From a phage: DNA of 64,000 nucleotides. The stretch lies in sequence record OZ335964.1. One strand, given 5' to 3'. The position numbers were made by a program, and so were the translations under genes. Positions 35,553 through 47,086 of the stretch are shown in pieces (position 1 is the first letter of the stretch; the number at the start of each line of letters is the position of its first letter). The notes under the pieces were generated by a model, which made no database searches, was not told the origin of the DNA, and saw only the letters and a program-made list of their open reading frames with translations.

Positions 35553-37604
35553 TTACATTTTAAATTTATCTGGCATAGCGTCTACAGATACCAGATCAGC
35601 GATAAGCTGACGTAGAGTTGCCTTATCTGCTTTCTTACGTTCGGTTTTAGCTTCGGTAATAAAGCTGGAGAAAGACAGGTCAGAAGCAGGTTTAACAACA
35701 CCTTCACGGATGAATGCATCACCGTCCGCGATCATCTCGCCAGATTCTTGTAATGCTGCCAGTTCATTTTTGTTCATAATATGTGCCTCAATGTAATAAG
35801 TTTCTTGTGAATCCGTCGATGCCGTAGCACGAGTTACCGTATCAAAGGATAACACAACACCGCGAGGAAGTAAAATCTCGCATTCTTTGTAAGCAAATGC
35901 TTTGTTACCTACTGGCAATACAGGGATGTTTTCCGCGCCAGCAATGGAGAAAGCAACATTAGCGCCACCTTCACCGCGAGATCCAGCCATAGAATCTACA
36001 CCAGCAACGGCACTAGCCACGTTTGCATTCCAGCCACCAAAAATGTTAGGTGCAAGGGAAGTGCTCACATAGTTTTTAAAGTAAAACGCTTTTTGCTTAC
36101 GTGCAGTTTCCCACATTTGAGACCGGAAGTCCATACCACGATACAGAATAGTACCAGGATCAAGTTTAACGCCATAGTTAGAGAAGGCATTATCCAGTGC
36201 ATCGCACATCTTGACCAATTCTTCTGGATCTGCGATGCCTTCAAACTCTTCCAGCTTACGGTCGGTTAGGAAGTTGTTCATATTGATGTATGCTGCATCG
36301 GCATATTCGCTCAACACAAAACCTTCCGCGCCAGGCAGATCAAGATCAATATCTGCCATCATTTCACCCATGTTGCTAGCAATTGCTTCAAACATACCGG
36401 AAGCAACATTACGTAGGGCATCGGTTTTAATCTGGGTGATATGACTACGCAGCATTTCAGCTTTTACATCTGCTGGCATAGACTGGTCTACTCGATCCAT
36501 TGCCAGTGCGGTGATCTTGTTTTCGAATACTTCCTCGCTCATGATTTCTTTTAAGCGTTTGATTGATGCTGCGATAACTTCCGCAGACAACGGATCATAT
36601 TGATCCTGAACTTTTACCAGTTCACTTACTGCGTATTTTGCATCGGCTTCGCTTTCAAAAATAGTACGCATGAAACCATAGCGAGTGATAATATCACTTG
36701 TCCAGTCATTCAGAGAACGGGCGGTTGAACGTTCTAAGGCTTGACGATCAATCAGAGTATTAAACTGTTTCTTAGGTTCGGCTTCGGTGATATCTTCTTC
36801 CGGTTTAAGATTAATTTTTTCTGGATGATTCACATAGTCGCTGTTATAGGTCGCTTGAGTTTTCAGCATTTCTTCTTTAGTCAAACGAGACTTAGCCGCT
36901 ACACGTTGTTCTGCTTCCGCGTTTCGTTCTTCTTCTGATGCAAGGCTAGCCGCATACGCTTCATCTTTAGTCAGAGATTCACCAGTAGCTTTAGATACCC
37001 AGCGATCACCTAAATCACTTTCTACTTTAGTGAACAGGGAATCATCAAGTTTAATCCCTTTAATCTTATCAATCGACATCCCGCGACGCTTGACAACAAC
37101 TAAAGCGATCTTTTTGCTGGTCATTACTTCCTGCTGGAATACTTCAAACTTAGGAGTACGACGCACCAAACGCTCTATAACGCGCTTAACCAGTTCGGTC
37201 TTACCTTTCATGCGGGATACGTTAAAACGGAACATAACAGCGTCTAATTGCGCTTTACGGGCTGTTTCCATAACCACATCAAAAGCACTTGCCATAACTG
37301 CAATCGGGTTATCGCCTAGACCATTTTTAAGCTGTACAATACGACCGCTTTTGTTCATCTCGCACAGTACAACATGTGCGGTCTTGTCACCCATACGAAT
37401 GATTTTAGGTGTTTTGTTGGTGAAGTTACAAAGACGGACAATCACATCTTTATCGCGTGTCTGTACTGCAAAAAGCTGTTTAGGGTTCTGCTTAGGCTTT
37501 AAGCACTGTACCGGAGCAATACTACCAAAGTTTTCTTCCTCTTCCGTCAACAGCCATTTCTCGAAAGATTCAATCATTAGATCGTCGATTTCTAAGTTAA
37601 ACAT
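35553..37604 (-). CDS. alt: Alt ADP-ribosyltransferase (internal head protein)
   Basis: 683 aa, T4 Alt-sized; C-terminal ART motifs ILYRGMD, YVSTSL, ECEILLPRG; position after gene 54. Confidence 0.8.
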   Translation of the reverse strand: MFNLEIDDLMIESFEKWLLTEEEENFGSIAPVQCLKPKQNPKQLFAVQTRDKDVIVRLCNFTNKTPKIIRMGDKTAHVVLCEMNKSGRIVQLKNGLGDNPIAVMASAFDVVMETARKAQLDAVMFRFNVSRMKGKTELVKRVIERLVRRTPKFEVFQQEVMTSKKIALVVVKRRGMSIDKIKGIKLDDSLFTKVESDLGDRWVSKATGESLTKDEAYAASLASEEERNAEAEQRVAAKSRLTKEEMLKTQATYNSDYVNHPEKINLKPEEDITEAEPKKQFNTLIDRQALERSTARSLNDWTSDIITRYGFMRTIFESEADAKYAVSELVKVQDQYDPLSAEVIAASIKRLKEIMSEEVFENKITALAMDRVDQSMPADVKAEMLRSHITQIKTDALRNVASGMFEAIASNMGEMMADIDLDLPGAEGFVLSEYADAAYINMNNFLTDRKLEEFEGIADPEELVKMCDALDNAFSNYGVKLDPGTILYRGMDFRSQMWETARKQKAFYFKNYVSTSLAPNIFGGWNANVASAVAGVDSMAGSRGEGGANVAFSIAGAENIPVLPVGNKAFAYKECEILLPRGVVLSFDTVTRATASTDSQETYYIEAHIMNKNELAALQESGEMIADGDAFIREGVVKPASDLSFSSFITEAKTERKKADKATLRQLIADLVSVDAMPDKFKM

Positions 37605-37921: not shown

Positions 37922-37950
37922 CATTATAGGGGATCGATGATCCCCTGTCA
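37922..37950 (-). promoter_or_regulatory. Early sigma70-like promoter cassette (TTGACA-N17-TATAAT) with palindromic spacer
   Basis: Minus strand: AAAAAGTTGTTGACA GGGGATCATCGATCCCC TATAAT, then conserved leader ACCGAAACGAAC and RBS before ORF 37886. Confidence 0.6.
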
Positions 37951-37958
37951 ACAACTTT

Positions 37959-38477
37959 TTAGTTATTTTTTAATTGCTCATCTTGCAATAAAGCAATCAC
38001 ATGCTGGCGATGTTCTTCCGACTGAGGCACACCGAAAAAGTTTGTTTTGTAGAAATACTCTAATCGGTCTTCTCGTGTGCTCTCTTCCATCATGATCGCG
38101 GGTAGTCCGAGATTTCGGAAACGTCGCTTTTCTGCTGGCGTAAAATCGCTGTAATACAGCATAGAATCATCATTACCAGCAATGCTAAACTCATCCTTCA
38201 TGAAAGAGAATATTGCGTTTAAACGCTGTTTACCGTCCACGATTTCGATCTCATAGCGAGAGCCATCATCAATCTTAGCCATTGCGATAGCACCAACCGG
38301 AAAATCATTAATCAGGTTTTCGATAAACATACGTTTGTTTTCTGTGTCCCATACTAAAGGACGCTGATAATCTGGGTTCATGTTGATAAAGCCATCTTCT
38401 AGCCATGCTTCATAGACAGATATGACAAAGTTTTTAGTATTGGTATAGTAACGGCGTTTAGGCGTTAAACGGTTCAT
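37959..38477 (-). CDS. DUF262 / ParB-like domain protein
   Basis: Motifs PDYQRPLVW and IVDGKQRLNAI match the DUF262 (GmrSD N-terminal) signature; start set at MNRLT with RBS AGGAGA. Confidence 0.5.
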   Translation of the reverse strand: MNRLTPKRRYYTNTKNFVISVYEAWLEDGFINMNPDYQRPLVWDTENKRMFIENLINDFPVGAIAMAKIDDGSRYEIEIVDGKQRLNAIFSFMKDEFSIAGNDDSMLYYSDFTPAEKRRFRNLGLPAIMMEESTREDRLEYFYKTNFFGVPQSEEHRQHVIALLQDEQLKNN

Positions 38478-38478
38478 G

Positions 38479-38811
38479 TTATAGTCTCCTGAATGGATCA
38501 TCACGTAAATCAATATCTTTTAAGAACTCATCCCATGAATGGCGGATATTGTTCTTAATTCTCCAGATAAGCGCAGGGATTGAACGCTCTCCCATCTGGA
38601 AGTAAGGATCATATGATCCGTATGCCCAATATGCTACTACAATTCCACAATCAGCGCAATAGTATTCTATTTCACTTGCTGGCGACCAAAGTCCATCAAT
38701 ATGATCGGTGATCTTGCTTTCGATGTTATGGCTATGGCAATCAGGGCAACGGATGCAATGACCTTGTTTATCGTAATTTGACGTTAGCGAATACTTAAAC
38801 AATCTCATCAT
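38479..38811 (-). CDS. Zinc-ribbon protein
   Basis: CIRCPDC...C..C..YYCADC cysteine pairs; translationally coupled between the MTase-like and DUF262-like genes. Confidence 0.45.
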   Translation of the reverse strand: MMRLFKYSLTSNYDKQGHCIRCPDCHSHNIESKITDHIDGLWSPASEIEYYCADCGIVVAYWAYGSYDPYFQMGERSIPALIWRIKNNIRHSWDEFLKDIDLRDDPFRRL

Positions 38812-39572
38812 AGATCCTTATTGGCTTCAAATACTGCCTTTGCGAATCCTCGCGGGGTAAGTGACCTGATAGTCTTTGTTCTGGTTCCTTTCCCGCCTAG
38901 CTTAGAATGCTGTTTACTGTACCCTTTCTCAATCGGCAACGGTTTCTTTTCTGGCATTATAAAGCCTTGTCCGGTCCATAAGCAAGTCTTTTTCGGGTAC
39001 ATATCACGGGCGGCAATATACTCAGGAAACGTAGGATGTATATCATCTTCCGGCAAATAACCGCCATATTCCCACGGGTGGAACATGTAATCAGGCTTAC
39101 GCCACATGCTAGAGATAACGCTTACAGGATTCTCTATCATGTAGGGAACTCCTAGCCATTCACCCAAATAAGCTGTTATTTTAGCTGCCCGTACATCATG
39201 AACTTGAATTAATGGTCCTTGCTCTCGTTTCTTTCGTTCAAAGTGTGCAGCGCCACTAACAGCTAAATTTGAACAGCTAGGAAACGCAAAGATCATATCC
39301 GGTTTGCCCCATTCAAGATCCATCGCCCTTTCCAACCAATCCAGATCTATCCATGAATTAACATAAGTTAAATTTGGGTGTTCAAATCGAGTGTTATACT
39401 TTTTATATGTTCCATGATCGGCATCATCAGCATTAAAGCAGATCACTTTATGACCTGCTTTAGCCCATTCTAGACCCATAATACCGGACCCATCGAATGT
39501 ACAAAATATAAGTTTACTTTCCGTGGTTTTCATGATAGCCATACTCTCTTTCTGCTTTGGTTCTAACTGCAA
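38808..39572 (-). CDS. SAM-dependent methyltransferase-like protein, possibly DNA cytosine-C5 type
   Basis: Motifs FDGSGIMG (motif I-like), FPSCSNLAVSG (PC-like), MIENP (ENV-like); true start probably an internal Met because of overlap with the upstream HNH gene. Confidence 0.4.
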   Translation of the reverse strand: MQLEPKQKESMAIMKTTESKLIFCTFDGSGIMGLEWAKAGHKVICFNADDADHGTYKKYNTRFEHPNLTYVNSWIDLDWLERAMDLEWGKPDMIFAFPSCSNLAVSGAAHFERKKREQGPLIQVHDVRAAKITAYLGEWLGVPYMIENPVSVISSMWRKPDYMFHPWEYGGYLPEDDIHPTFPEYIAARDMYPKKTCLWTGQGFIMPEKKPLPIEKGYSKQHSKLGGKGTRTKTIRSLTPRGFAKAVFEANKDL

Positions 39573-40050
39573 CGGCTTCTTCTAGTGTGTCGAAACACCC
39601 TAGATATTTTCTATCACCGCGTCGACCGCCGCCAATTCTAACTACCCATTTATTGTATTTGTTTTTATGTATTCCACTATGTCCGCTTGTATTCTTTTTA
39701 GACTTTGTTTGATTTCTCATGTTGTCGCGGTGTAGTTTAAGTTCAAAGTTAACCGCTCTATTATCTGTCTTAATGTGATTAATATGATCTACTTCATATC
39801 CTTCTGGTATAGGTCCATTGTGGATAATATAACATACTCGATGAACTTTGTAGTTAATAATTTTACCGTCAATTTTTATTGACGATTCAAGATAACGTCC
39901 ACCACTTCCTAGTGACCCGACCTCCTTTCCAGCCCATGCAGCATTCCATTGTTTTATTCTTGATGGGTGTATATCTGTTCTCTCCTTCCATGTAAGGATA
40001 CCAGTGTCAGGATCATAATTAAAGTATTTCTTCCAGTCTATATTGTTCAC
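39514..40050 (-). CDS. HNH homing endonuclease with AP2 DNA-binding domain
   Basis: HNH core (YEVDHINHIKTDNRAVN) and AP2-like region (KWVVRIGGGRRGDRKYLGCFDTLEEAVAVR). Confidence 0.75.
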   Translation of the reverse strand: MNNIDWKKYFNYDPDTGILTWKERTDIHPSRIKQWNAAWAGKEVGSLGSGGRYLESSIKIDGKIINYKVHRVCYIIHNGPIPEGYEVDHINHIKTDNRAVNFELKLHRDNMRNQTKSKKNTSGHSGIHKNKYNKWVVRIGGGRRGDRKYLGCFDTLEEAVAVRTKAEREYGYHENHGK

Positions 40051-40338: not shown

Positions 40339-40368
40339 ATTGTAGGGGATCTCCCGATCCCCTGTCAA
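40339..40368 (-). promoter_or_regulatory. Early promoter cassette (TTGACA-N18-TACAAT), palindromic spacer
   Basis: Spacer GGGGATCGGGAGATCCC; conserved leader and RBS AGGAGA before ORF 40298. Confidence 0.55.
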
Positions 40369-40381
40369 CAACTTTTTTAGA

Positions 40382-40855
40382 TTATTTGCACCAAATTCGA
40401 ATTATTTCGTCTCGTTCAAATTTCTGCCAGATTACTCGGTCACCCGCTGCCATGATACTGACAAATCCAGTTGTGTTTCCTGTGTACTTGCTTTTAGTCT
40501 CGGCATCATATTCAAAGAATGGTGCTTTAAGATCGCTAAACTCATCTTTTCCCACAAACTTCATAACATGACGATGCGCGTAATATTCGCTTCTTAGTGT
40601 TGTTGTGATAGTTCCGTCATTATTTGATTTCAGATGTAATTCTGCATCTTCATAAAGACTTGCATCTCGTTGTTTACTTTCAATACCGTCGTTATATGTT
40701 GATTTCGTTGCACTCCAACATTGATAAGTTTTATCAACATTTTCGATCTTTTCCTGTGTCATATCAAAAAGCGGTGCAACCTTTTTCTTAGCCGCGTGTG
40801 CTACGTTGGTCATGGACAGTGCTGCAACAACCACAATAGCAATAATCTTCTTCAT
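40382..40855 (-). CDS. Secreted/periplasmic protein
   Basis: N-terminal signal peptide (MKKIIAIVVVAALSMTNVAHA); RBS AAGGAGA. Confidence 0.55.
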   Translation of the reverse strand: MKKIIAIVVVAALSMTNVAHAAKKKVAPLFDMTQEKIENVDKTYQCWSATKSTYNDGIESKQRDASLYEDAELHLKSNNDGTITTTLRSEYYAHRHVMKFVGKDEFSDLKAPFFEYDAETKSKYTGNTTGFVSIMAAGDRVIWQKFERDEIIRIWCK

Positions 40856-40919
40856 AGTATTCTCCTTTTGTTTTGTGTTGGGAGTATCTTAGCGACACTC
40901 CCGTTATTTTTCAAATCTT

Positions 40920-41201
40920 TTATTCGTGATTAGTTTCGATGTTATACATTTTGCACCAGTTCAGCCAATCGCCCAGATCTTGATAGTTGATGCTTTTATC
41001 TGCTGCCATCGTTTTGGTCTTGATACCCATATGTGCGTTATGAGTAAGCATTTTTACAGTGAACTCAATTTTATCGCCTTTAGCTTTAACATCAACCAGT
41101 TTGGTCCACTGGCTACCAGCGCCGCGAATGTTCATACCAACGATGTTTCCGATGTATGCTTCTTTGTTTTTCAGGATTTCGGTTGCTTTGATGAATTTCA
41201 T
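40920..41201 (-). CDS. Hypothetical protein
   Basis: 93-aa ORF behind an early promoter cassette. Confidence 0.5.
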   Translation of the reverse strand: MKFIKATEILKNKEAYIGNIVGMNIRGAGSQWTKLVDVKAKGDKIEFTVKMLTHNAHMGIKTKTMAADKSINYQDLGDWLNWCKMYNIETNHE

Positions 41202-41234
41202 TTTTGATTCTCCAGTTCGTTTCGGTATGGGTGT

Positions 41235-41263
41235 ATTATGCTATGTTCTTACTTTGGTGTCAA
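41235..41263 (-). promoter_or_regulatory. Early promoter cassette (TTGACA-N17-CATAAT)
   Basis: Upstream AAAAAGTTG UP-like tract, conserved leader CCGAAACGAAC, RBS GGAGAA before ORF 41201. Confidence 0.55.
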
Positions 41264-41270
41264 CAACTTT

Positions 41271-41540
41271 TTAGATATTTTCAGAAATAAATTTTAAAAC
41301 TTGACGTAAATGTTTCTCATCTTTGATAGTCGCCGGAAGTTCTTCTTTTACTTCCTGTGCAAGATAGATATTTCCGTTCCAAGTGAAAGATCCGTCTTCG
41401 TTTACGCGATAGCTGAACATCCACTCGCAATCATTTTCGATTTCATATACACACAGAAGGGTGTAATCGTTAAAGCTATTGATTTCAAGGTCGAAGCCGT
41501 GACGTTTTGCAAAGTTGGTAGTGGTTTTAGTCAGTGCCAT
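41271..41540 (-). CDS. Hypothetical protein
   Basis: 89-aa ORF behind an early promoter cassette. Confidence 0.5.
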   Translation of the reverse strand: MALTKTTTNFAKRHGFDLEINSFNDYTLLCVYEIENDCEWMFSYRVNEDGSFTWNGNIYLAQEVKEELPATIKDEKHLRQVLKFISENI

Positions 41541-41580
41541 TGTTTGATTCTCCTAAGTGGTATCTCGTTTCGATGGGTGT

Positions 41581-41609
41581 ATTATGCTATACACAGGATC
41601 TGGTGTCAA
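41581..41609 (-). promoter_or_regulatory. Early promoter cassette (TTGACA-N17-CATAAT)
   Basis: Conserved leader CATCGAAACGAGATAC and RBS AGGAGA before ORF 41540; sits just downstream of a terminator. Confidence 0.55.
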
Positions 41610-41634
41610 TGCCTTTTTTAAAAATTTTGGCAAT

Positions 41635-41658
41635 AAAAAAGCCGACACTAAGGTCGGC
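41635..41658 (-). terminator. Terminator after ORF 41667, immediately followed by a promoter cassette
   Basis: Minus strand GCCGAC-CTTAGT-GTCGGC followed by TTTTTT. Confidence 0.6.
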
Positions 41659-41666
41659 TAATAAAA

Positions 41667-41975
41667 TCAACGAGATAGATAATCGTTTTGCGCGATCTGG
41701 TCGGCGTATGCTGGTGTTATGTCAATCGCCAACACTTTAACGCGTGCTTTCTTGCGACCTGGGTTTTCTCGTAACCAGTGCTCATGACCGTGCACATTTT
41801 TATATTTTGATGCGGTTTCGAAGGTACGGATCGGACCTGGATAATCTGCGTAAAGGATCTCTAGGTCTTCGGTGATGTAAAAATATACATCATAATTACT
41901 GTTCTCTAGTTTAAGCAGAGAATTGCGAAATTGTGGTAAATTCTCGCGGGTAAATTCAACTACAAGATTTTTCAT
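41667..41975 (-). CDS. HxHW-motif small protein, family member 1
   Basis: YDVYFYITED...HGHEHW...VKVLAIDI; start set at MKNLVVEF (RBS GAGGA after the terminator). Confidence 0.5.
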   Translation of the reverse strand: MKNLVVEFTRENLPQFRNSLLKLENSNYDVYFYITEDLEILYADYPGPIRTFETASKYKNVHGHEHWLRENPGRKKARVKVLAIDITPAYADQIAQNDYLSR

Positions 41976-42000
41976 AGTGATATCCTCATTCAGATAGATT

Positions 42001-42019
42001 AAAAGGGGCTTAATGCCCC
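42001..42019 (-). terminator. Terminator after ORF 42025
   Basis: Minus strand GGGGC-ATTAA-GCCCC followed by TTTT. Confidence 0.55.
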
Positions 42020-42024
42020 CTATA

Positions 42025-42312
42025 TTAAAACAGTCCTTCCTGTACACCGTAGTAGAGTTCATCGCTGATAATTTCATTAATGCGACGGTGTGCATATTCC
42101 TGATTTGCGAAGTTGTCAGCAAGTTCTACTTTAGTTTCGCCGTCATGAGTCCATTTAGTGATAACTTTACCATCTGCAAATTTGAAGTTGAACTCTTTAG
42201 CTACCGCATCGCGTACCAGACATGCAAACTTGTTGTTGCGGATTGCATTATCGGTTTCGTGTGCAGCGTGAGCAAATTTGTTAACTTTCAGAGTGATAGT
42301 AATGTATGCCAT
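42025..42312 (-). CDS. Hypothetical protein
   Basis: 95-aa ORF behind an early promoter cassette. Confidence 0.5.
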   Translation of the reverse strand: MAYITITLKVNKFAHAAHETDNAIRNNKFACLVRDAVAKEFNFKFADGKVITKWTHDGETKVELADNFANQEYAHRRINEIISDELYYGVQEGLF

Positions 42313-42358
42313 AATTTGATTCTCCTAGTTAGAAAGTGTATCTCGTTTCGATGGGTGT

Positions 42359-42387
42359 ATTATGCTATACACCCGATCCGGTGTCAA
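42359..42387 (-). promoter_or_regulatory. Early promoter cassette (TTGACA-N17-CATAAT), palindromic ACACCGGATCGGGTGT
   Basis: Conserved leader CATCGAAACGAGATAC and RBS AGGAGA before ORF 42312. Confidence 0.55.
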
Positions 42388-42394
42388 CAACTTT

Positions 42395-42673
42395 TTATAA
42401 AATAATTTTTTGATATTTTTCTATGATGTTCGTGTAATTCACATCAACCGCTATCACCGTTGCTTCGAATCCACCGTTTAGCCAATGGCTATGGTCATGA
42501 TCGTGAAAGAAACCAAGACCAGTGCGAAGACCTTCTTTATATTCGGCGCGTACATTTAGAGAATCGTCGATAAACAGATAAAACCATGAATTTTTACTAG
42601 GATTGATGATACAACCTTTCAGATTAGGGAGAATATCACGACTAAGAATAAACTTATCACCTACTTTGAACAT
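42395..42673 (-). CDS. HxHW-motif small protein, family member 2
   Basis: WFYLFIDD...HDHDHSHW...TVIAVDV; start set at MFKV (RBS GAGGA). Confidence 0.5.
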   Translation of the reverse strand: MFKVGDKFILSRDILPNLKGCIINPSKNSWFYLFIDDSLNVRAEYKEGLRTGLGFFHDHDHSHWLNGGFEATVIAVDVNYTNIIEKYQKIIL

Positions 42674-42677
42674 AATA

Positions 42678-42998
42678 TTAGTCCTCACTTATAAGGTCAA
42701 ACCAATTGTTTTTCGCATAATGCTTAATGCGTGCTTGATCTGCTTCCGCTGGTGATAGATTCCATGCAACCACTACAACTTCTGACGCATCGTCATCCGT
42801 TTCTGATACCCAATGATTGTGATTCATACAGTTATTTGCGATCGAGTGAGCAAATGATTTCATCACTGGAGACGTATAATCATAGTAACGGATTTTCAGA
42901 TTTTCATCAACGTACAAATAGATCGTATAAGGTTTATATTCAGTAACCAGTAACAGACAGTTACGCAATTCTGGGAAAATATTTTTAGTTAATTTCAT
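42678..42998 (-). CDS. HxHW-motif small protein, family member 3
   Basis: YTIYLYVDEN...NHNHW...EVVVVAW. Confidence 0.5.
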   Translation of the reverse strand: MKLTKNIFPELRNCLLLVTEYKPYTIYLYVDENLKIRYYDYTSPVMKSFAHSIANNCMNHNHWVSETDDDASEVVVVAWNLSPAEADQARIKHYAKNNWFDLISED

Positions 42999-43200
42999 AT
43001 TCTAGTTCTCCGTAATATACGGTAATCCATTTTTCTTCATACTTTGTATCTTTCCAACACACAATCCCGTTTACTGTGCAATCTTTGGAATTGACGAATG
43101 ATTCATATTGTTCTGCATCTTCCATCATTGCATGAGCGGTCTTTTCATCGAATATATCGCAGATCGCTTTATATGCTCGATAATCTTTAAATTTGCTCAT
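42985..43200 (-). CDS. Small protein, paralog of the next ORF
   Basis: MSKFKDYRAYKAI...MMEDAEQ...GIVCWKDT; start set at MSKF. Confidence 0.45.
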   Translation of the reverse strand: MSKFKDYRAYKAICDIFDEKTAHAMMEDAEQYESFVNSKDCTVNGIVCWKDTKYEEKWITVYYGELEYEIN

Positions 43201-43202
43201 AA

Positions 43203-43412
43203 TTAAGACCACTCAAGAGTTTTTGAAAACACATCTATCCATTGTTGAGTATATGCGGTTTCTTTCCATGATACAATACCAGTCGAATAATGGTTTTTGT
43301 TTCCAGAAAAGGACGGGCATTTTGATGCATCTTCCATCATCTTTTCGGCGAACTCCGCGTCATATACCCGCAGGATCTGTTGATATGCTTTATAATCTTT
43401 AAATTTGCTCAT
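43203..43412 (-). CDS. Small protein, paralog of the previous ORF
   Basis: MSKFKDYKAYQQI...MMEDASK...GIVSWKET. Confidence 0.45.
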   Translation of the reverse strand: MSKFKDYKAYQQILRVYDAEFAEKMMEDASKCPSFSGNKNHYSTGIVSWKETAYTQQWIDVFSKTLEWS

Positions 43413-43677
43413 AATTGTTAACTACCTTATCAGCTTCTTTTATTGTTTTTACATCAACTGCGATAATCCGTAAAGGTTCGTCGAAGGTCCACCAATGATC
43501 GTGAATATCGGCTTGTGATTTATCACCAAAGGAATCACGAATATCATTTTTACATTTATAGCTAATGTGACCTTCATAGTCAACATAAAGGTAATTATCG
43601 AAAATCGGCGTTTTTAAGATCATACCGAAAAATCTTTCTTTGTGTGTCTTATCCAGTGTTGCAGTAATTCGCATCAT
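43399..43677 (-). CDS. HxHW-motif small protein, family member 4
   Basis: DNYLYVDYEG...IHDHWW...LRIIAVDV. Confidence 0.5.
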   Translation of the reverse strand: MMRITATLDKTHKERFFGMILKTPIFDNYLYVDYEGHISYKCKNDIRDSFGDKSQADIHDHWWTFDEPLRIIAVDVKTIKEADKVVNNYEQI

Positions 43678-43689
43678 AATATATTCCTC

Positions 43690-43869
43690 TTAGAAAGGGA
43701 TGGTCATTTCTTGAGCTTGTACATTCTCGTTAGGATTAAACTTCATCCAACCGATATTGTCTACCAGCATATGTACATTTTTATCATATCCTACGTGAGT
43801 AGTCAACACTAAATGTGCTTTACCTTCAACGATGATTTCCATGTACTTCTGAACTTCGATAGCTTTCAT
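43690..43869 (-). CDS. Small hypothetical protein (59 aa), below track cutoff
   Basis: ATG immediately downstream of an early promoter cassette and its RBS GGAGAA. Confidence 0.4.
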   Translation of the reverse strand: MKAIEVQKYMEIIVEGKAHLVLTTHVGYDKNVHMLVDNIGWMKFNPNENVQAQEMTIPF

Positions 43870-43902
43870 TTTTGATTCTCCGTTTGTTGTCTTGATGGGA
43901 GT

Positions 43903-43931
43903 ATCTTACTACTCCCTTTAATCATTGTCAA
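43903..43931 (-). promoter_or_regulatory. Early promoter cassette (TTGACA-N17-TAAGAT) with GGGAGTA/TACTCCC palindrome
   Basis: Conserved leader and RBS before small ORF 43869. Confidence 0.5.
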
Positions 43932-43934
43932 CTA

Positions 43935-44102
43935 TTATTTGTTAATTTCTGGTGCGTTGCTCGGATAGTAACCTTCTTTAACACCTAGATATTTTGCAAC
44001 CATTCCGGGGATCTTCTGTGCTACTACGATATCGAATTTCAGGTAGTCTTCACCGTGGTTTGCTACAATGTATGCTTCGCATTCTGCTTTAGTCTGGAAC
44101 AT
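43935..44102 (-). CDS. Small hypothetical protein (start set at MFQTK)
   Basis: The longer track ORF would run into the promoter cassette; internal ATG has RBS AGGAGA. Confidence 0.4.
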   Translation of the reverse strand: MFQTKAECEAYIVANHGEDYLKFDIVVAQKIPGMVAKYLGVKEGYYPSNAPEINK

Positions 44103-44135
44103 TTTTATTCTCCTATATCTCGTTGGTATGTGTGC

Positions 44136-44164
44136 ATTATAGGGGATCACCGATCCCCTGTCAA
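44136..44164 (-). promoter_or_regulatory. Early promoter cassette (TTGACA-N17-TATAAT), palindromic spacer GGGGATCGGTGATCCCC
   Basis: Conserved leader ACCAACGAGATA and RBS AGGAGA before ORF 44102. Confidence 0.6.
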
Positions 44165-44169
44165 CAACT

Positions 44170-44463
44170 TTATAATGCTTTATATGCGTATTTCATAAAT
44201 TTGTCTGCCACTTCATTGGCATGTTCAGATTCTACGCCTGATTCGAGAACAATAGCTAGGTCGGTTTCGTCATTCCCGCCGTACCAATGATTTGATGTTC
44301 GATTTTTTTCAATTGGAAATTGGTCACTTTTATCTGTGCGACAAAATACATCTAAATGCTCGTCGATGTAAAAGATCCAATCCTCATAAAGAATAACGGT
44401 ATTAGCCAGATTTTTATTACCTTCAACGAAAGGTTCGGCTACAAACAAATTAGTATGTTCCAT
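44170..44463 (-). CDS. HxHW-motif small protein, family member 5 (divergent)
   Basis: WIFYIDEH...SNHW...LAIVLE. Confidence 0.45.
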   Translation of the reverse strand: MEHTNLFVAEPFVEGNKNLANTVILYEDWIFYIDEHLDVFCRTDKSDQFPIEKNRTSNHWYGGNDETDLAIVLESGVESEHANEVADKFMKYAYKAL

Positions 44464-44520
44464 AGTATTTTCCTCAATTTGTGGGAGAGTATTGCCCCTC
44501 CCGATGATTGTTATATTATA

Positions 44521-44841
44521 TCACACAAAATGGCGTGTCAATGCTTCTTTTGCGGTTCCGCTAAGACTTTCGATCTCGCCTGGCATAACATCAACTGCCA
44601 GAACTTCTACAACATCCTCTGATCCTAACCAGTGAGTATGACCTTTGTAGAACTTGATAACCAGACTACCTTCCTCGTCCCATTTAACGCTATCGCTAGC
44701 CCACCACACATCACCGTCGATAAAGTTGATGTAAAGCACACTACGCCACATTGAATTAATTACTTTCAATACTGCGCCTTTCATCTCTTCCACGGTGTGG
44801 TCTTCCATTTTGAAGACCTCACCTACCTGAACTTTTGCCAT
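44521..44841 (-). CDS. HxHW-motif small protein, family member 6
   Basis: VLYINFIDGD...GHTHW...VVEVLAVDV. Confidence 0.5.
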   Translation of the reverse strand: MAKVQVGEVFKMEDHTVEEMKGAVLKVINSMWRSVLYINFIDGDVWWASDSVKWDEEGSLVIKFYKGHTHWLGSEDVVEVLAVDVMPGEIESLSGTAKEALTRHFV

Positions 44842-44858
44842 TTAGTCACCTCTCTTTA

Positions 44859-45038
44859 TTACATAACAATCACGCCAGCCGTTGAAAGTTGATGTTTCAA
44901 CTGAGCATTTTCTGCTACTGTCAAATCAATGATTTCTTGTGACGCTGCAATCATATAACCATTGGTGATATTGTTTTGCATCAGTTCAATGGTTTCTTCG
45001 TTGTAGCGGATTTTAGCGATGATTTCGTTGAAGTTCAT
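44859..45038 (-). CDS. Small hypothetical protein (59 aa), below track cutoff
   Basis: ATG directly after a promoter cassette and RBS AGGAGA. Confidence 0.4.
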   Translation of the reverse strand: MNFNEIIAKIRYNEETIELMQNNITNGYMIAASQEIIDLTVAENAQLKHQLSTAGVIVM

Positions 45039-45072
45039 GTTTGATTCTCCTAGTTCGTTTCGGTATGTGTGT

Positions 45073-45101
45073 AGTATAGGGGATCACCGATCCCCTGTCA
45101 A
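45073..45101 (-). promoter_or_regulatory. Early promoter cassette (TTGACA-N17-TATACT), palindromic spacer GGGGATCGGTGATCCCC
   Basis: Conserved leader ACCGAAACGAAC and RBS AGGAGA before small ORF 45038. Confidence 0.6.
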
Positions 45102-45114
45102 CAACTTTTTTGAA

Positions 45115-45591
45115 TTATTTTTCTTGATGCTCGCGCTCGTACTTTTCGAAATAAAATTCTACTGGCTGGTCGTGGATTGACAGTAAGCCAAAGCGTTTAG
45201 CCGCTCGCAACCCCATATTGCGCTGAATGTACTTCTGGAAGTTCTCGCGTATACACTTACGCCAGTATTCTAAGCCCATACAGCTTTTATAAAGATTGCA
45301 TTGCACACACGCCGGATTCATGTTATCAAGTATATCATGCTCCGGTTTATGCATTCCTACAACCTTATACTTCCACGATCCATCATCATTACGGGCAATT
45401 CGTCCATTTTCATCATAGACTACTTTTGAGCGTCGTAATACTGGTTTGATGTGGTCTGCGTGCCAGCGATCCCCTAGTTCCTCGCCACAATAGGCACAAT
45501 GTCCACCATATTTCATTTTCAGGATCTGGCGTTGCTCTTTCTTTGACAATTTTTTAGGTTTAGGGGCTTTCGCCCCTTCATTATCACACAT
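45115..45591 (-). CDS. HNH endonuclease family protein
   Basis: CAYCGEELG...HADHIKP...NMNPACVQCN; translationally coupled to the ligase gene. Confidence 0.6.
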   Translation of the reverse strand: MCDNEGAKAPKPKKLSKKEQRQILKMKYGGHCAYCGEELGDRWHADHIKPVLRRSKVVYDENGRIARNDDGSWKYKVVGMHKPEHDILDNMNPACVQCNLYKSCMGLEYWRKCIRENFQKYIQRNMGLRAAKRFGLLSIHDQPVEFYFEKYEREHQEK

Positions 45592-47086
45592 CGAATACCT
45601 CTTTTACTGTATTTGCAGTGGTCTTGTCGTAGCGAATACGTTTGATGATCGGGAGAAATAAAGAGAACTCCGGTTCATCTTCTTTACGTGATTTGCTGCG
45701 GATATACCCGTTGCATGTCATCTCAATGACTTTTCCAATCAGGTTATGACGGTCAGCCCATAACATTTCTCGGTCAAGTTCATTTCGACGATCGAACGGA
45801 ATTACACGTTCGATACCATCATCACCTTTTTCGGTTGTAGTGTCGGTTAATCCCGATCCGGTGTTAGTCATCATTCGTCCACACGCACTACGGACAGTAA
45901 AACCGCCTACCTTATTGGGGTCTTTACTATGCGGATATACATCAACAATTTCCGCGTCGAAGTCAATCACTTCTTTAAATTTAACCTGATCTTTACTACG
46001 GCGATCTTCAAATACACCATGCAGATTTTTAAGGATAATACCTTCTAAGCCCATGTTTACATAGCGATGATATACTTCGCGAGCTTCATCGATATTGTTA
46101 ACTACAGTATTTTCGATTATCTGAACACGAGGATCGTTAAGTTCTTCAACAATCTGTTTTAGTTCTTCGAATCGATCTTTATATTGCTTCGTTGCTTTCT
46201 CGTTTCCGTAATACACATCACGGTCGATAACATCCCAGACAGTGTAAACAATACATTGGGCTTCTTCTTTTGGAATAGTTCCTTTCAGTGATTTGTTGAG
46301 GATACCATTTCCGGTCTGACGATCTGCAACAACGGATTCTTTTACTGCTTCCGCTACTGGCGTTAATGGTATTTCCTCTTCTTCAAATATCCATGACAGA
46401 GTACCATCATAAACGCTCTCAACGAAGTTCTGCGCTGGTGTTTGCGAAAGGGTAGGCATATATACCAATTCGCCATCTAGAACAATTCCACGGCCTCGTA
46501 GACGCTCTAAAACAGAAAACAAATCATCCAGCCCCTGGTAGGTATTACCTGAACGGGTATATATTGCTAATGTTTCCCCGTCAATATCAGCCATACCACG
46601 AGCGCCATCACTTTTAAGTTGTGCATATGCCGGATATTTGATATTAGCAATAGCCTTATCAGAATATGACGATGCAAGGTGGCATGGTTGCTGGGGGATC
46701 AGTTTCTTCCATACCTTGTTTGAAGTGGTAGCGGAACAACCGCATTCCAGATCACGATTCAGGACCATCATTGCAACTTTAGCATCATCTTCTGACAAGC
46801 AAGTCAGAGTATCGGTAACTAGCTGTAATGCTGCATTACCAGTTACTTGACGCGTGGCAAGTTTATTTTTAAAGACCTGCAATGCACCGGATAAAGACAA
46901 TACAGACGAATAGCGCGATGGTTTATCGTATTTCTTTACGCCAAACGTAACCTGTTTGCAATATGCCAGATAAAAGCATTCTTTCAGCGTTTCATTGCTT
47001 GCAGATTCTTTCAGGATCTTTTCTTTCAGCGATGTTTTGTCGGTCGCTGCAAGCTGGTTAATGATATTAAGAATTGACATTTTCAC
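45584..47086 (-). CDS. 30: ATP-dependent DNA ligase (gp30)
   Basis: Aligns with T4 DNA ligase: TGNAA, MMVLNRDLECG, YAQLKSDGARG (adenylation lysine motif), EGIILKN, GGF. Confidence 0.9.
   Translation of the reverse strand: MKMSILNIINQLAATDKTSLKEKILKESASNETLKECFYLAYCKQVTFGVKKYDKPSRYSSVLSLSGALQVFKNKLATRQVTGNAALQLVTDTLTCLSEDDAKVAMMVLNRDLECGCSATTSNKVWKKLIPQQPCHLASSYSDKAIANIKYPAYAQLKSDGARGMADIDGETLAIYTRSGNTYQGLDDLFSVLERLRGRGIVLDGELVYMPTLSQTPAQNFVESVYDGTLSWIFEEEEIPLTPVAEAVKESVVADRQTGNGILNKSLKGTIPKEEAQCIVYTVWDVIDRDVYYGNEKATKQYKDRFEELKQIVEELNDPRVQIIENTVVNNIDEAREVYHRYVNMGLEGIILKNLHGVFEDRRSKDQVKFKEVIDFDAEIVDVYPHSKDPNKVGGFTVRSACGRMMTNTGSGLTDTTTEKGDDGIERVIPFDRRNELDREMLWADRHNLIGKVIEMTCNGYIRSKSRKEDEPEFSLFLPIIKRIRYDKTTANTVKEVFDV

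Follow-up and report, generated by a model that had tools for sequence, protein, structure and literature searches.

Six small minus-strand genes between positions 41667 and 44841 of a 64,000-nucleotide stretch of phage DNA (record OZ335964.1; the whole stretch is called the window below) are true protein-coding paralogs within a single family, built on a domain of about 95 residues and referred to here as F, or the HxHW family. The interval from 41000 to 45500 was matched by 59 phage records, all of them Krischvirus (RB49-like Straboviridae) at 90 to 96% identity and none identical, and on these matches the source phage is a Krischvirus, an RB49-like T4-type coliphage. Our overall account is that F constitutes a duplicated family of early, host-directed accessory proteins with a shared His/Trp site, shuffled by the early promoter/stem-loop (PeSL) cassettes of these phages. 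We advance this account tentatively, as one that falls just short of probable, and hold its functional part with low confidence.

Six ORFs belong to one family

A sequence-only reading of this DNA had singled out six minus-strand open reading frames (ORFs) by their stop coordinates, the motifs HGHEHW, HDHDHSHW, NHNHW, IHDHWW, SNHW, and GHTHW, a Y/F-x-Y/F-I/V-D block, and the stretches VLAIDI, VIAVDV, IIAVDV, and VLAVDV. All of these ORFs and motifs are present, and two starts were refined. The F1 start is most likely the ATG at 41975, behind the Shine-Dalgarno sequence GAGGA, rather than the TTG of a 151-amino-acid (aa) ORF, and the F2 start is most likely the ATG at 42673 rather than the GTG at 42688, because these choices fit the Shine-Dalgarno or upstream sequences and the registers of the PHROG profiles. 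The genes, with their counterparts in phage RB49, are as follows.

F1, 41667..41975, minus strand: 102 aa; RB49p197; phrog_9345; HGHEHW, codons 41775-41786
F2, 42395..42673, minus strand: 92 aa; RB49p199; phrog_17255; HDHDHSHW, HSHW codons 42482-42493
F3, 42678..42998, minus strand: 106 aa; RB49p200; phrog_9345; NHNHW at 42810-42821
F4, 43399..43677, minus strand: 92 aa; RB49p203; phrog_15972; IHDHWW at 43492-43503
F5, 44170..44463, minus strand: 97 aa; RB49p206; phrog_15965; degenerate SNHW at 44284-44295
F6, 44521..44841, minus strand: 106 aa; RB49p208; phrog_16486; GHTHW at 44629-44640

Direct phmmer comparisons linked F1 to F3 (E value of 3e-14), F2 to F3 (4e-5), and F2 to F6 (2e-3). F4 and F5 gave no significant direct pairwise match to the other copies, a point in favor of regarding the shared motifs as chance or compositional and the ORFs as unrelated ORFans. 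We consider that explanation refuted, with next to no probability left to it. Leaving out each subfamily in turn, we searched a profile of the other five against the 573 stop-to-stop six-frame ORFs of the window. The omitted gene ranked first in all six cases (E values from 2e-15 to 1.6e-4), whereas the top unrelated ORF reached only 0.09 to 1.1, and even F4, the weakest link in the family, was recovered at 5e-7. Profile-profile alignments of the subfamilies with hhalign were colinear throughout, with probabilities of 97.6% for F1 and F3, 92.6% for F1 and F5, 88% for F1 and F2, 87.7% for F1 and F6, and 72% for F2 and F4. The new divergent members recovered from 1.84 billion proteins (see below) also all carry H-[ND]-H-W in register. 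The earlier proposal of one paralogous family with shared motifs is thus supported by both the alignment and the leave-one-out profiles. No seventh member was found in the window or in the whole RB49 genome.

The same proteins are distributed in PHROGs over five separate families (9345, 17255, 15972, 15965, and 16486, all "unknown function"), to which the window copies match at E values of 1e-48 to 1e-72, whereas the profile-profile and leave-one-out comparisons unite them in a single superfamily in which H-W is invariant and HxHW conserved. Apart from a few core positions, the F copies are only 20 to 25% identical to one another.

The F genes are translated and constrained, as judged from ribosome-binding sites, with a Shine-Dalgarno sequence before each of the six copies, and low ratios of nonsynonymous to synonymous substitution (dN/dS). 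In comparisons with orthologs from five to seven other genomes, dN/dS was 0 to 0.2; F4 gave 0.5 to 0.6 (at most 0.58), only at very small distances. These values indicate purifying selection on the orthologs. The variation seen in the family lies in gene content and deep paralog divergence, and strains do not differ by rapid sequence change.

The shared domain and its predicted fold

In an alignment of 50 sequences (F1 numbering), His66 and Trp67 are invariant, and conservation is at least 90% at His64, Ile34, and Val81. Inclusion of the most divergent members still leaves Tyr33 and His64 at no less than 90%, and His66 and Trp67 were invariant across alignments of 27 to 50 sequences. The family consensus reads [YW]-L-[YF]-I-D-x-x-L-x-V ... 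H-[NDEST]-H-W ... V-L-A-x-[DN]-V-x-P-x-x-A-D, and several copies have extra alternating histidines (HGHEH and HDHDHSH). The six proteins have isoelectric points of 4.5 to 6.8, net charges of -0.2 to -11, three to four His and zero to two Cys each, and no signal peptide features were found in them.

AlphaFold2 gave a confident model of F1, with a mean predicted local distance difference test (pLDDT) score of 83.6 and a predicted template modeling (pTM) score of 0.79. The modeled strands span residues 5 to 7, 19 to 23, 30 to 34, 40 to 44, and 78 to 83, the fifth being V-L-A-V-D-V, and the helices span residues 52 to 62 (long), 65 to 68 (a short helix or loop that bears HxHW), and 88 to 100 (C terminal). 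The F domain is therefore predicted to be an alpha/beta fold in which four N-terminal strands are followed by a helix, the HxHW segment, a strand, and a helix.

Comparison with known families and folds

The homology to a known family that the sequence-only reading had named as counting against it was not found in Pfam, NCBIfam, PADLOC, PDB, or Foldseek searches. Pfam, NCBIfam, and PADLOC scans of the six F proteins and 27 family members returned no consistent match; the subthreshold hits (PROCT, TTL, Cupin_2, T4_Y03C, and an ISL3 transposase) were scattered, none occurred in more than two members, and we attribute them to chance. The best E value was 0.15 in a PDB sequence-profile search and 0.5 when the F1 model was compared to PDB with Foldseek. 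Against BFVD, Foldseek recovered the family's own members and weak matches in N4-like phages. By these sequence and model searches, F is an orphan family without a detectable relative of known fold or function.

The only structural neighbor of the F model outside Krischvirus is an 87-aa protein of the N4-like Pseudoalteromonas phage pYD6-A (M4SRW3; contig L023, 2215-2478), which matched the F1 model at a Foldseek probability of 0.98 and template modeling scores of 0.53 to 0.61. As in the F cluster, it lies in a tandem array of early paralogs of about 90 aa (L023, 1932-4344), and the pYD6-A proteins have an F-like layout, with a beta-rich N terminus and, ahead of a C-terminal helix, a "VELIELDI" strand. 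They lack HxHW, however, and their hhalign probability to F is 0.5%. The model comparison would at most indicate a shared small fold, not demonstrable homology.

Several motif-based candidates were considered and set aside. Proteins of the metallo-beta-lactamase superfamily have an HxHxDH motif and an alpha-beta/beta-alpha sandwich of about 200 aa or more; F is half that size and has no D-H continuation, no further invariant ligands, and no sequence match. This fold class includes the phage anti-Pycsar nuclease Apyc1. Neither the H-phi-H-phi-H-phi-phi motif nor the alpha+beta fold of the HIT family is seen in F. The "HNH" of F is contiguous (H-N-H-W), unlike the H...N...H of HNH/beta-beta-alpha-Me nucleases, which is spaced out over a beta-beta-alpha metal finger, and Pfam HNH matched none of the 27 members but did match both HNH genes that neighbor the cluster. 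A KOW/SH3-like assignment (Spt5), the name carried by P0079 in nr, was rejected, since F has neither the KOW motif nor the five-stranded barrel. Pfam T4_Y03C (PF25721) matched 1 of 27 members at 13.4 bits (E value of 0.1) against a gathering cutoff of 27, and its alignment is not colinear, with the C-terminal half of F placed on the N-terminal half of the model. The cupin superfamily (G(x)5HxH(x)3-4E(x)6G, beta-barrel) was matched by one member at an E value of 0.2, and the F1 model is alpha/beta with no barrel. A capsid-targeting N terminus was also considered for F1, which begins with MKNLVVEF; it was rejected because the other five N termini differ, the model assigns the F1 residues to its first strand, and no late promoter is present. 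The comparison was with the N-terminal signal of T4 internal proteins.

Known inhibitors of antiphage defense with solved structures show no similarity to F in fold or sequence. Small phage antidefense proteins include Acb2, Tad1, and Tad2. F resembles such "sponge" or inhibitor proteins in size class, early expression, and location in accessory regions, and the likeness is a "works-like" analogy only, which would extend to possible ligand binding by oligomers via aromatic or His side chains.

A second family, K, and gene fusions

Two genes of a second family, K, are interleaved with the F genes.

K1, 43203..43412, minus strand: 69 aa; phrog_8471; start overlaps the end of F4 by 14 nucleotides (nt)
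K2, 42985..43200, minus strand: 71 aa; paralog of K1, which it abuts; end overlaps the start of F3 by 14 nt

The K signature is KDYxAY...MMEDA...W...W, and phrog_8471, to which both K1 and K2 belong, is annotated as function unknown. Apart from the 14-nt overlaps at F4/K1 and K2/F3, the genes F4, K1, K2, F3, and F2 are separated by only 2 to 4 nt (4 nt from the F3 stop to the F2 start), and coupled translation is therefore predicted for this series. K is restricted to the same phages as F, and an F gene follows it directly in five of the six K-carrying lineages: the window, KFS-EC, JSE, a 169-kb metagenomic phage (L013), and L007.

On a metagenomic contig (L004, 300-1100), K-K-F occurs as a single ORF of 260 aa, which points to a possible functional link between K and F; a homolog search with the K-K-F ORF, taken at 266 aa, gave no match. 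A tandem F-F protein of 203 aa is found on two contigs, one of which (L003, 823-1434; Logan SRR8048117) is 2.1 kb long and carries five F domains in four genes. This second fusion suggests that two F domains could work together as a dimeric unit.

Distribution and copy number

Searched for in other phage genomes, as the sequence-only reading had suggested, the family was found, and only in the RB49-like lineage. A tblastn search of F1 against 50,697 phage records gave matches only in 58 Krischvirus genomes. An exhaustive hidden Markov model (HMM) search of 1.84 billion representative proteins returned 23 matches, or about 20 clusters once three were removed (P0097, P0099, and P0101, large proteins with NHL-like and other repeats that we judged to be repeat-driven artifacts); the remainder are 84 to 128 aa long, with one of 203 aa. 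A search of IMG/VR with family member P0098 gave no match. In contigs long enough to show it, the position between the ligase gene and alt is the same in KFS-EC, RB49, the 169-kb metagenomic phage, and a sister lineage. That sister lineage has two F genes and one K gene, and its ligase shares 72% identity with that of the window, against 41% for T4. No F or K homolog was found in the syntenic T4 region, nor any F-like ORF in T4 from 112 to 136 kb. As far as these searches reach, the family is confined to RB49-like T4-type phages, namely Krischvirus and its sister lineage. Gene content varies within this group as follows.

RB49 and KFS-EC: six F and two K
Cognac: F5 and F6 only
FL04: F5 variant and F6
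phiS: F1 to F4 and two K, without F5 and F6
JSE and the 169-kb metagenomic phage: one K and two different F3-like copies (45 to 54% identity)
JSE only: F1 and F5 orthologs each frameshifted into two annotated ORFs (L021, 4357-4664 and 6717-7011)

Copy number ranged from two to six among the genomes examined, with no member universal and at least two kept in each genome. This distribution is that of members that are individually dispensable yet, on the sequence evidence, selectively maintained. The split F1 and F5 genes of JSE are either pseudogenes or sequencing errors. The F5 ortholog of FL04 (L019, 7240-7758) is annotated at 172 aa, with ORF207-like upstream sequence in frame, and may be a fusion or an annotation artifact.

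Promoters, operons, and proposed shuffling of the cluster

The promoters, terminator, and remaining small genes of the cluster are listed below in the direction of transcription.

45073..45101, minus strand: PeSL-type early promoter, TTGACA-17-TATACT with palindromic spacer GGGGATCGGTGATCCCC; drives orf59 and F6
44859..45038, minus strand: orf59, 59 aa, not F related; phrog_14803; RB49p209; cotranscribed upstream of F6
44513..44541, minus strand: weaker sigma70-like promoter, located within the F6 3' end; precedes F5
44136..44164, minus strand: PeSL-type early promoter, TTGACA-GGGGATCGGTGATCCCC-TATAAT, 12/12 consensus; directly downstream of F5
43935..44102, minus strand: 55-aa ORF, not F related; phrog_8009; RB49p205; behind the PeSL at 44164
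43903..43931, minus strand: sigma70-like promoter, upstream of orf59b-F4-K1-K2-F3-F2
43690..43869, minus strand: orf59b, 59 aa, not F related; phrog_15082; RB49p204; first gene of the F4...F2 operon
42359..42387, minus strand: PeSL-type early promoter, downstream of F2; drives orf95 and F1
42025..42312, minus strand: orf95, 95 aa, not F related; phrog_7474; RB49p198; followed by a hairpin at 42004-42021
41640..41659, minus strand: intrinsic terminator (hairpin and T-run) that closes the cluster after F1
41581-41609, minus strand: PeSL, next after the F1 terminator
41263, 40339-40368, and about 37923-37951, minus strand: further palindromic-spacer promoters (GGGGATCGGTGATCCCC and variants)

Four F-containing transcription units can be read from this arrangement: orf59-F6 from the PeSL at 45101, F5 from the promoter at 44541, orf59b-F4-K1-K2-F3-F2 from the promoter at 43931, and orf95-F1 from the PeSL at 42387 to the terminator. 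The orf59 gene adjoins an F6-like gene on contig L003 too. The proposal that each F gene stands behind its own promoter cassette or is translationally coupled holds in broad terms, given the PeSLs and the overlapping starts and stops. F4-K1-K2-F3-F2 form one operon, and the cluster is flanked and punctuated by PeSLs (45101, 44164, 42387, and 41609), but not by one for each F gene. No late promoter motif (TATAAATA) was found between 40 and 46 kb.

PeSLs have been described as early promoter/stem-loop cassettes of the hyperplastic regions of RB49 and phi1 (Arbiol et al. 2010, PMC2839356; Comeau et al. 2014, PMC4122927), and in RB49, recombination from PeSL to PeSL was shown to excise minicircles with ORF191-194 and ORF210 (PMC2839356). 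In RB49 numbering, ORF191-194 lie immediately downstream of the F/K cluster, and ORF210 lies immediately upstream. The F cluster and the published PeSL ORFans share the phage group, the same hyperplastic region (HPR3), palindromic-spacer sigma70-like early promoters, and presence/absence polymorphism between close relatives. The F genes have no homologs outside the lineage and show presence/absence or replacement polymorphism. In the parts of the two reports that we consulted (PMC2839356 and PMC4122927), the ORFs are handled as independent database orphans, with no mention of paralogs found; the F genes, in contrast, form one family with interleaved K genes, and several lie in an overlapping operon instead of single-gene cassettes.

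The array would be explained by tandem duplication, followed by gain, loss, and reshuffling of F genes through recombination between PeSL cassettes. For example, recombination between the PeSLs at 45101 and 44164, which have identical spacers, could delete F5, F6, and orf59.

Genomic setting

The F cluster lies in HPR3, a hyperplastic region between conserved core genes, bounded by the DNA ligase gene (gene 30) and an HNH gene on one side and by alt on the other. In T4, one small gene, alt.1, occupies the interval from ligase to alt, against about 25 small ORFs in RB49-like phages. The sequence-only reading was right to place these diversified paralogs among the early hyperplastic regions of T-even-type phages. 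Landmarks from the ORFs of the window include the following.

45584-47086: DNA ligase (gene 30)
38808-39572: DNA methyltransferase-like ORF, in the same hyperplastic region
35553-37604: alt ADP-ribosyltransferase gene

The HNH gene beside the ligase gene (45115-45591, minus strand; HNH at an E value of 5e-6) overlaps the 3' end of the latter by 8 nt. A second HNH gene (39514-40050, minus strand; HNH_3 at 7e-15), which several relatives lack, overlaps the end of the methyltransferase-like ORF. Just upstream of alt, a 184-aa ORF (37959-38513, minus strand) has a GmrSD_N/DUF262 N-terminal domain (Pfam E value of 6e-20) with the nuclease half absent; this domain, known from a host restriction enzyme, is an unusual find in a phage genome.

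The ORFs at 40382-41540 (minus strand) are counterparts of RB49 ORF192-194. ORF192 (157 aa) has an N terminus that resembles a signal peptide or lipoprotein (MKKIIAIVVVAALSMTNVAHA), and Arbiol et al. (2010, PMC2839356) report it absent from phage phi1. Compared to RB49, the window lacks ORF207 (between F6 and F5) and ORF210 and ORF211 (between orf59 and the HNH gene; 44842-45115).

Possible functions of the F proteins

The F proteins would be cytoplasmic, mostly acidic proteins made immediately after infection, and they may act on host components in takeover or counterdefense. Pointers to a host role are the early promoters, the dispensability of members, and the neighboring alt, DNA methyltransferase, and GmrSD_N-like genes; an antidefense or host takeover role is inferred from this genomic context. 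We propose the His-x-His-Trp loop as the shared functional site, most likely for a divalent metal or small ligand, because it is conserved across paralogs that otherwise have so little identity. The divergent remainder of each paralog would confer different target specificity, and the functional unit would probably be a dimer or hetero-oligomer, possibly with K proteins.

Several observations weigh against this account. Only two histidines are conserved, which is not enough for a monomer to hold a mononuclear site, and the first of them is Ser in F5 of both the window and RB49, with HNHW in many F5 orthologs. Confidence in the F1 model is lowest in the HxHW segment (pLDDT of about 70). For the tandem F-F protein P0086, AlphaFold gave a model (pLDDT of 60, pTM of 0.50) that is too poor to place the domains and lends no support to a defined dimer. 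By exact look-up, the K-K-F fusion was seen only once, on a 1.2-kb Logan contig. The strong purifying selection estimated for the orthologs is not what a rapid arms race would be expected to leave behind, arguments from neighboring genes carry little weight in a hyperplastic region, and searches of the available literature found neither functional data on the F ORFs nor any mention of them.

Alternatively, the F proteins could be pure protein-protein binders or inhibitors, each directed at a different host protein, in which HxHW is structural and serves in helix capping and Trp core packing. We think this possible but unlikely. Small size, acidic isoelectric points, early expression, the low identity of the paralogs outside a few core positions, the tolerance of F5 for loss of the first His, and the individual dispensability of members would all suit such binders. 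However, an invariant polar His across very deep paralogs is unusual for a purely structural residue, and the extra alternating histidines look like selection for His density.

A more far-reaching version of the site-based account has the HxHW domain as a new fold that forms homo- or heterodimers and complexes with K around a metal- or nucleotide-binding site, so that the six paralogs would be a counterdefense battery with one host immune signal or effector each, and F would represent a new class of antidefense proteins peculiar to RB49-like phages. Taken with all of these specifics, it seems improbable to us.

We give still less weight to F as a miniature metal-dependent hydrolase or phosphodiesterase whose dimer would be a metallo-beta-lactamase-like two-layer sandwich and which might, for example, destroy host immune signaling nucleotides. 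The HxH motif, an invariant aromatic residue able to stack on a base, and the existence of the tandem F-F fusion speak for this very doubtful reading. Against it are the absence of a Foldseek match, of the HxHxDH continuation, and of a third or fourth invariant ligand, the missing His of F5, and the oddity of a single operon set encoding six enzymes of the same kind.

A role for F proteins in regulating phage or host gene expression by binding nucleic acids is highly improbable: early timing, an automated database name ("KOW2-KOW3 domains of Spt5") on an F2 ortholog, and a KOW-like N-terminal "VGDKF/VGEVF" stretch in F2 and F6 are set against the charges and isoelectric points given above and the absence of a Pfam match to KOW, helix-turn-helix (HTH), or any other nucleic-acid-binding domain.

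Implications for RB49-like phages

The F genes had already been deposited as hypothetical proteins in five PHROGs of unknown function, and the cassettes and shuffling of the region had been published. What is new is their union in one superfamily with a defined motif, its apparent lack of a fold relative, the partnership with K, the two fusions, and the map of copy number. The hyperplastic regions of T4-type phages hold most of their genes of unknown function and have been the source of many recent counterdefense proteins. Here, an anonymous block of ORFs becomes a defined experimental target with natural copy-number variants (two in Cognac, four in phiS, and six in RB49) and with conserved residues that lend themselves to point mutation. 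The F family will be unsurprising to a T4 specialist, yet it is a well-defined, testable candidate. If F proteins do not bind metal or signaling molecules, the result would be a cleaner annotation, with five PHROGs joined in one superfamily, and a worked example of paralog amplification in a PeSL-shuffled region. If they do, they would represent a new class of small proteins in phage-host biology.

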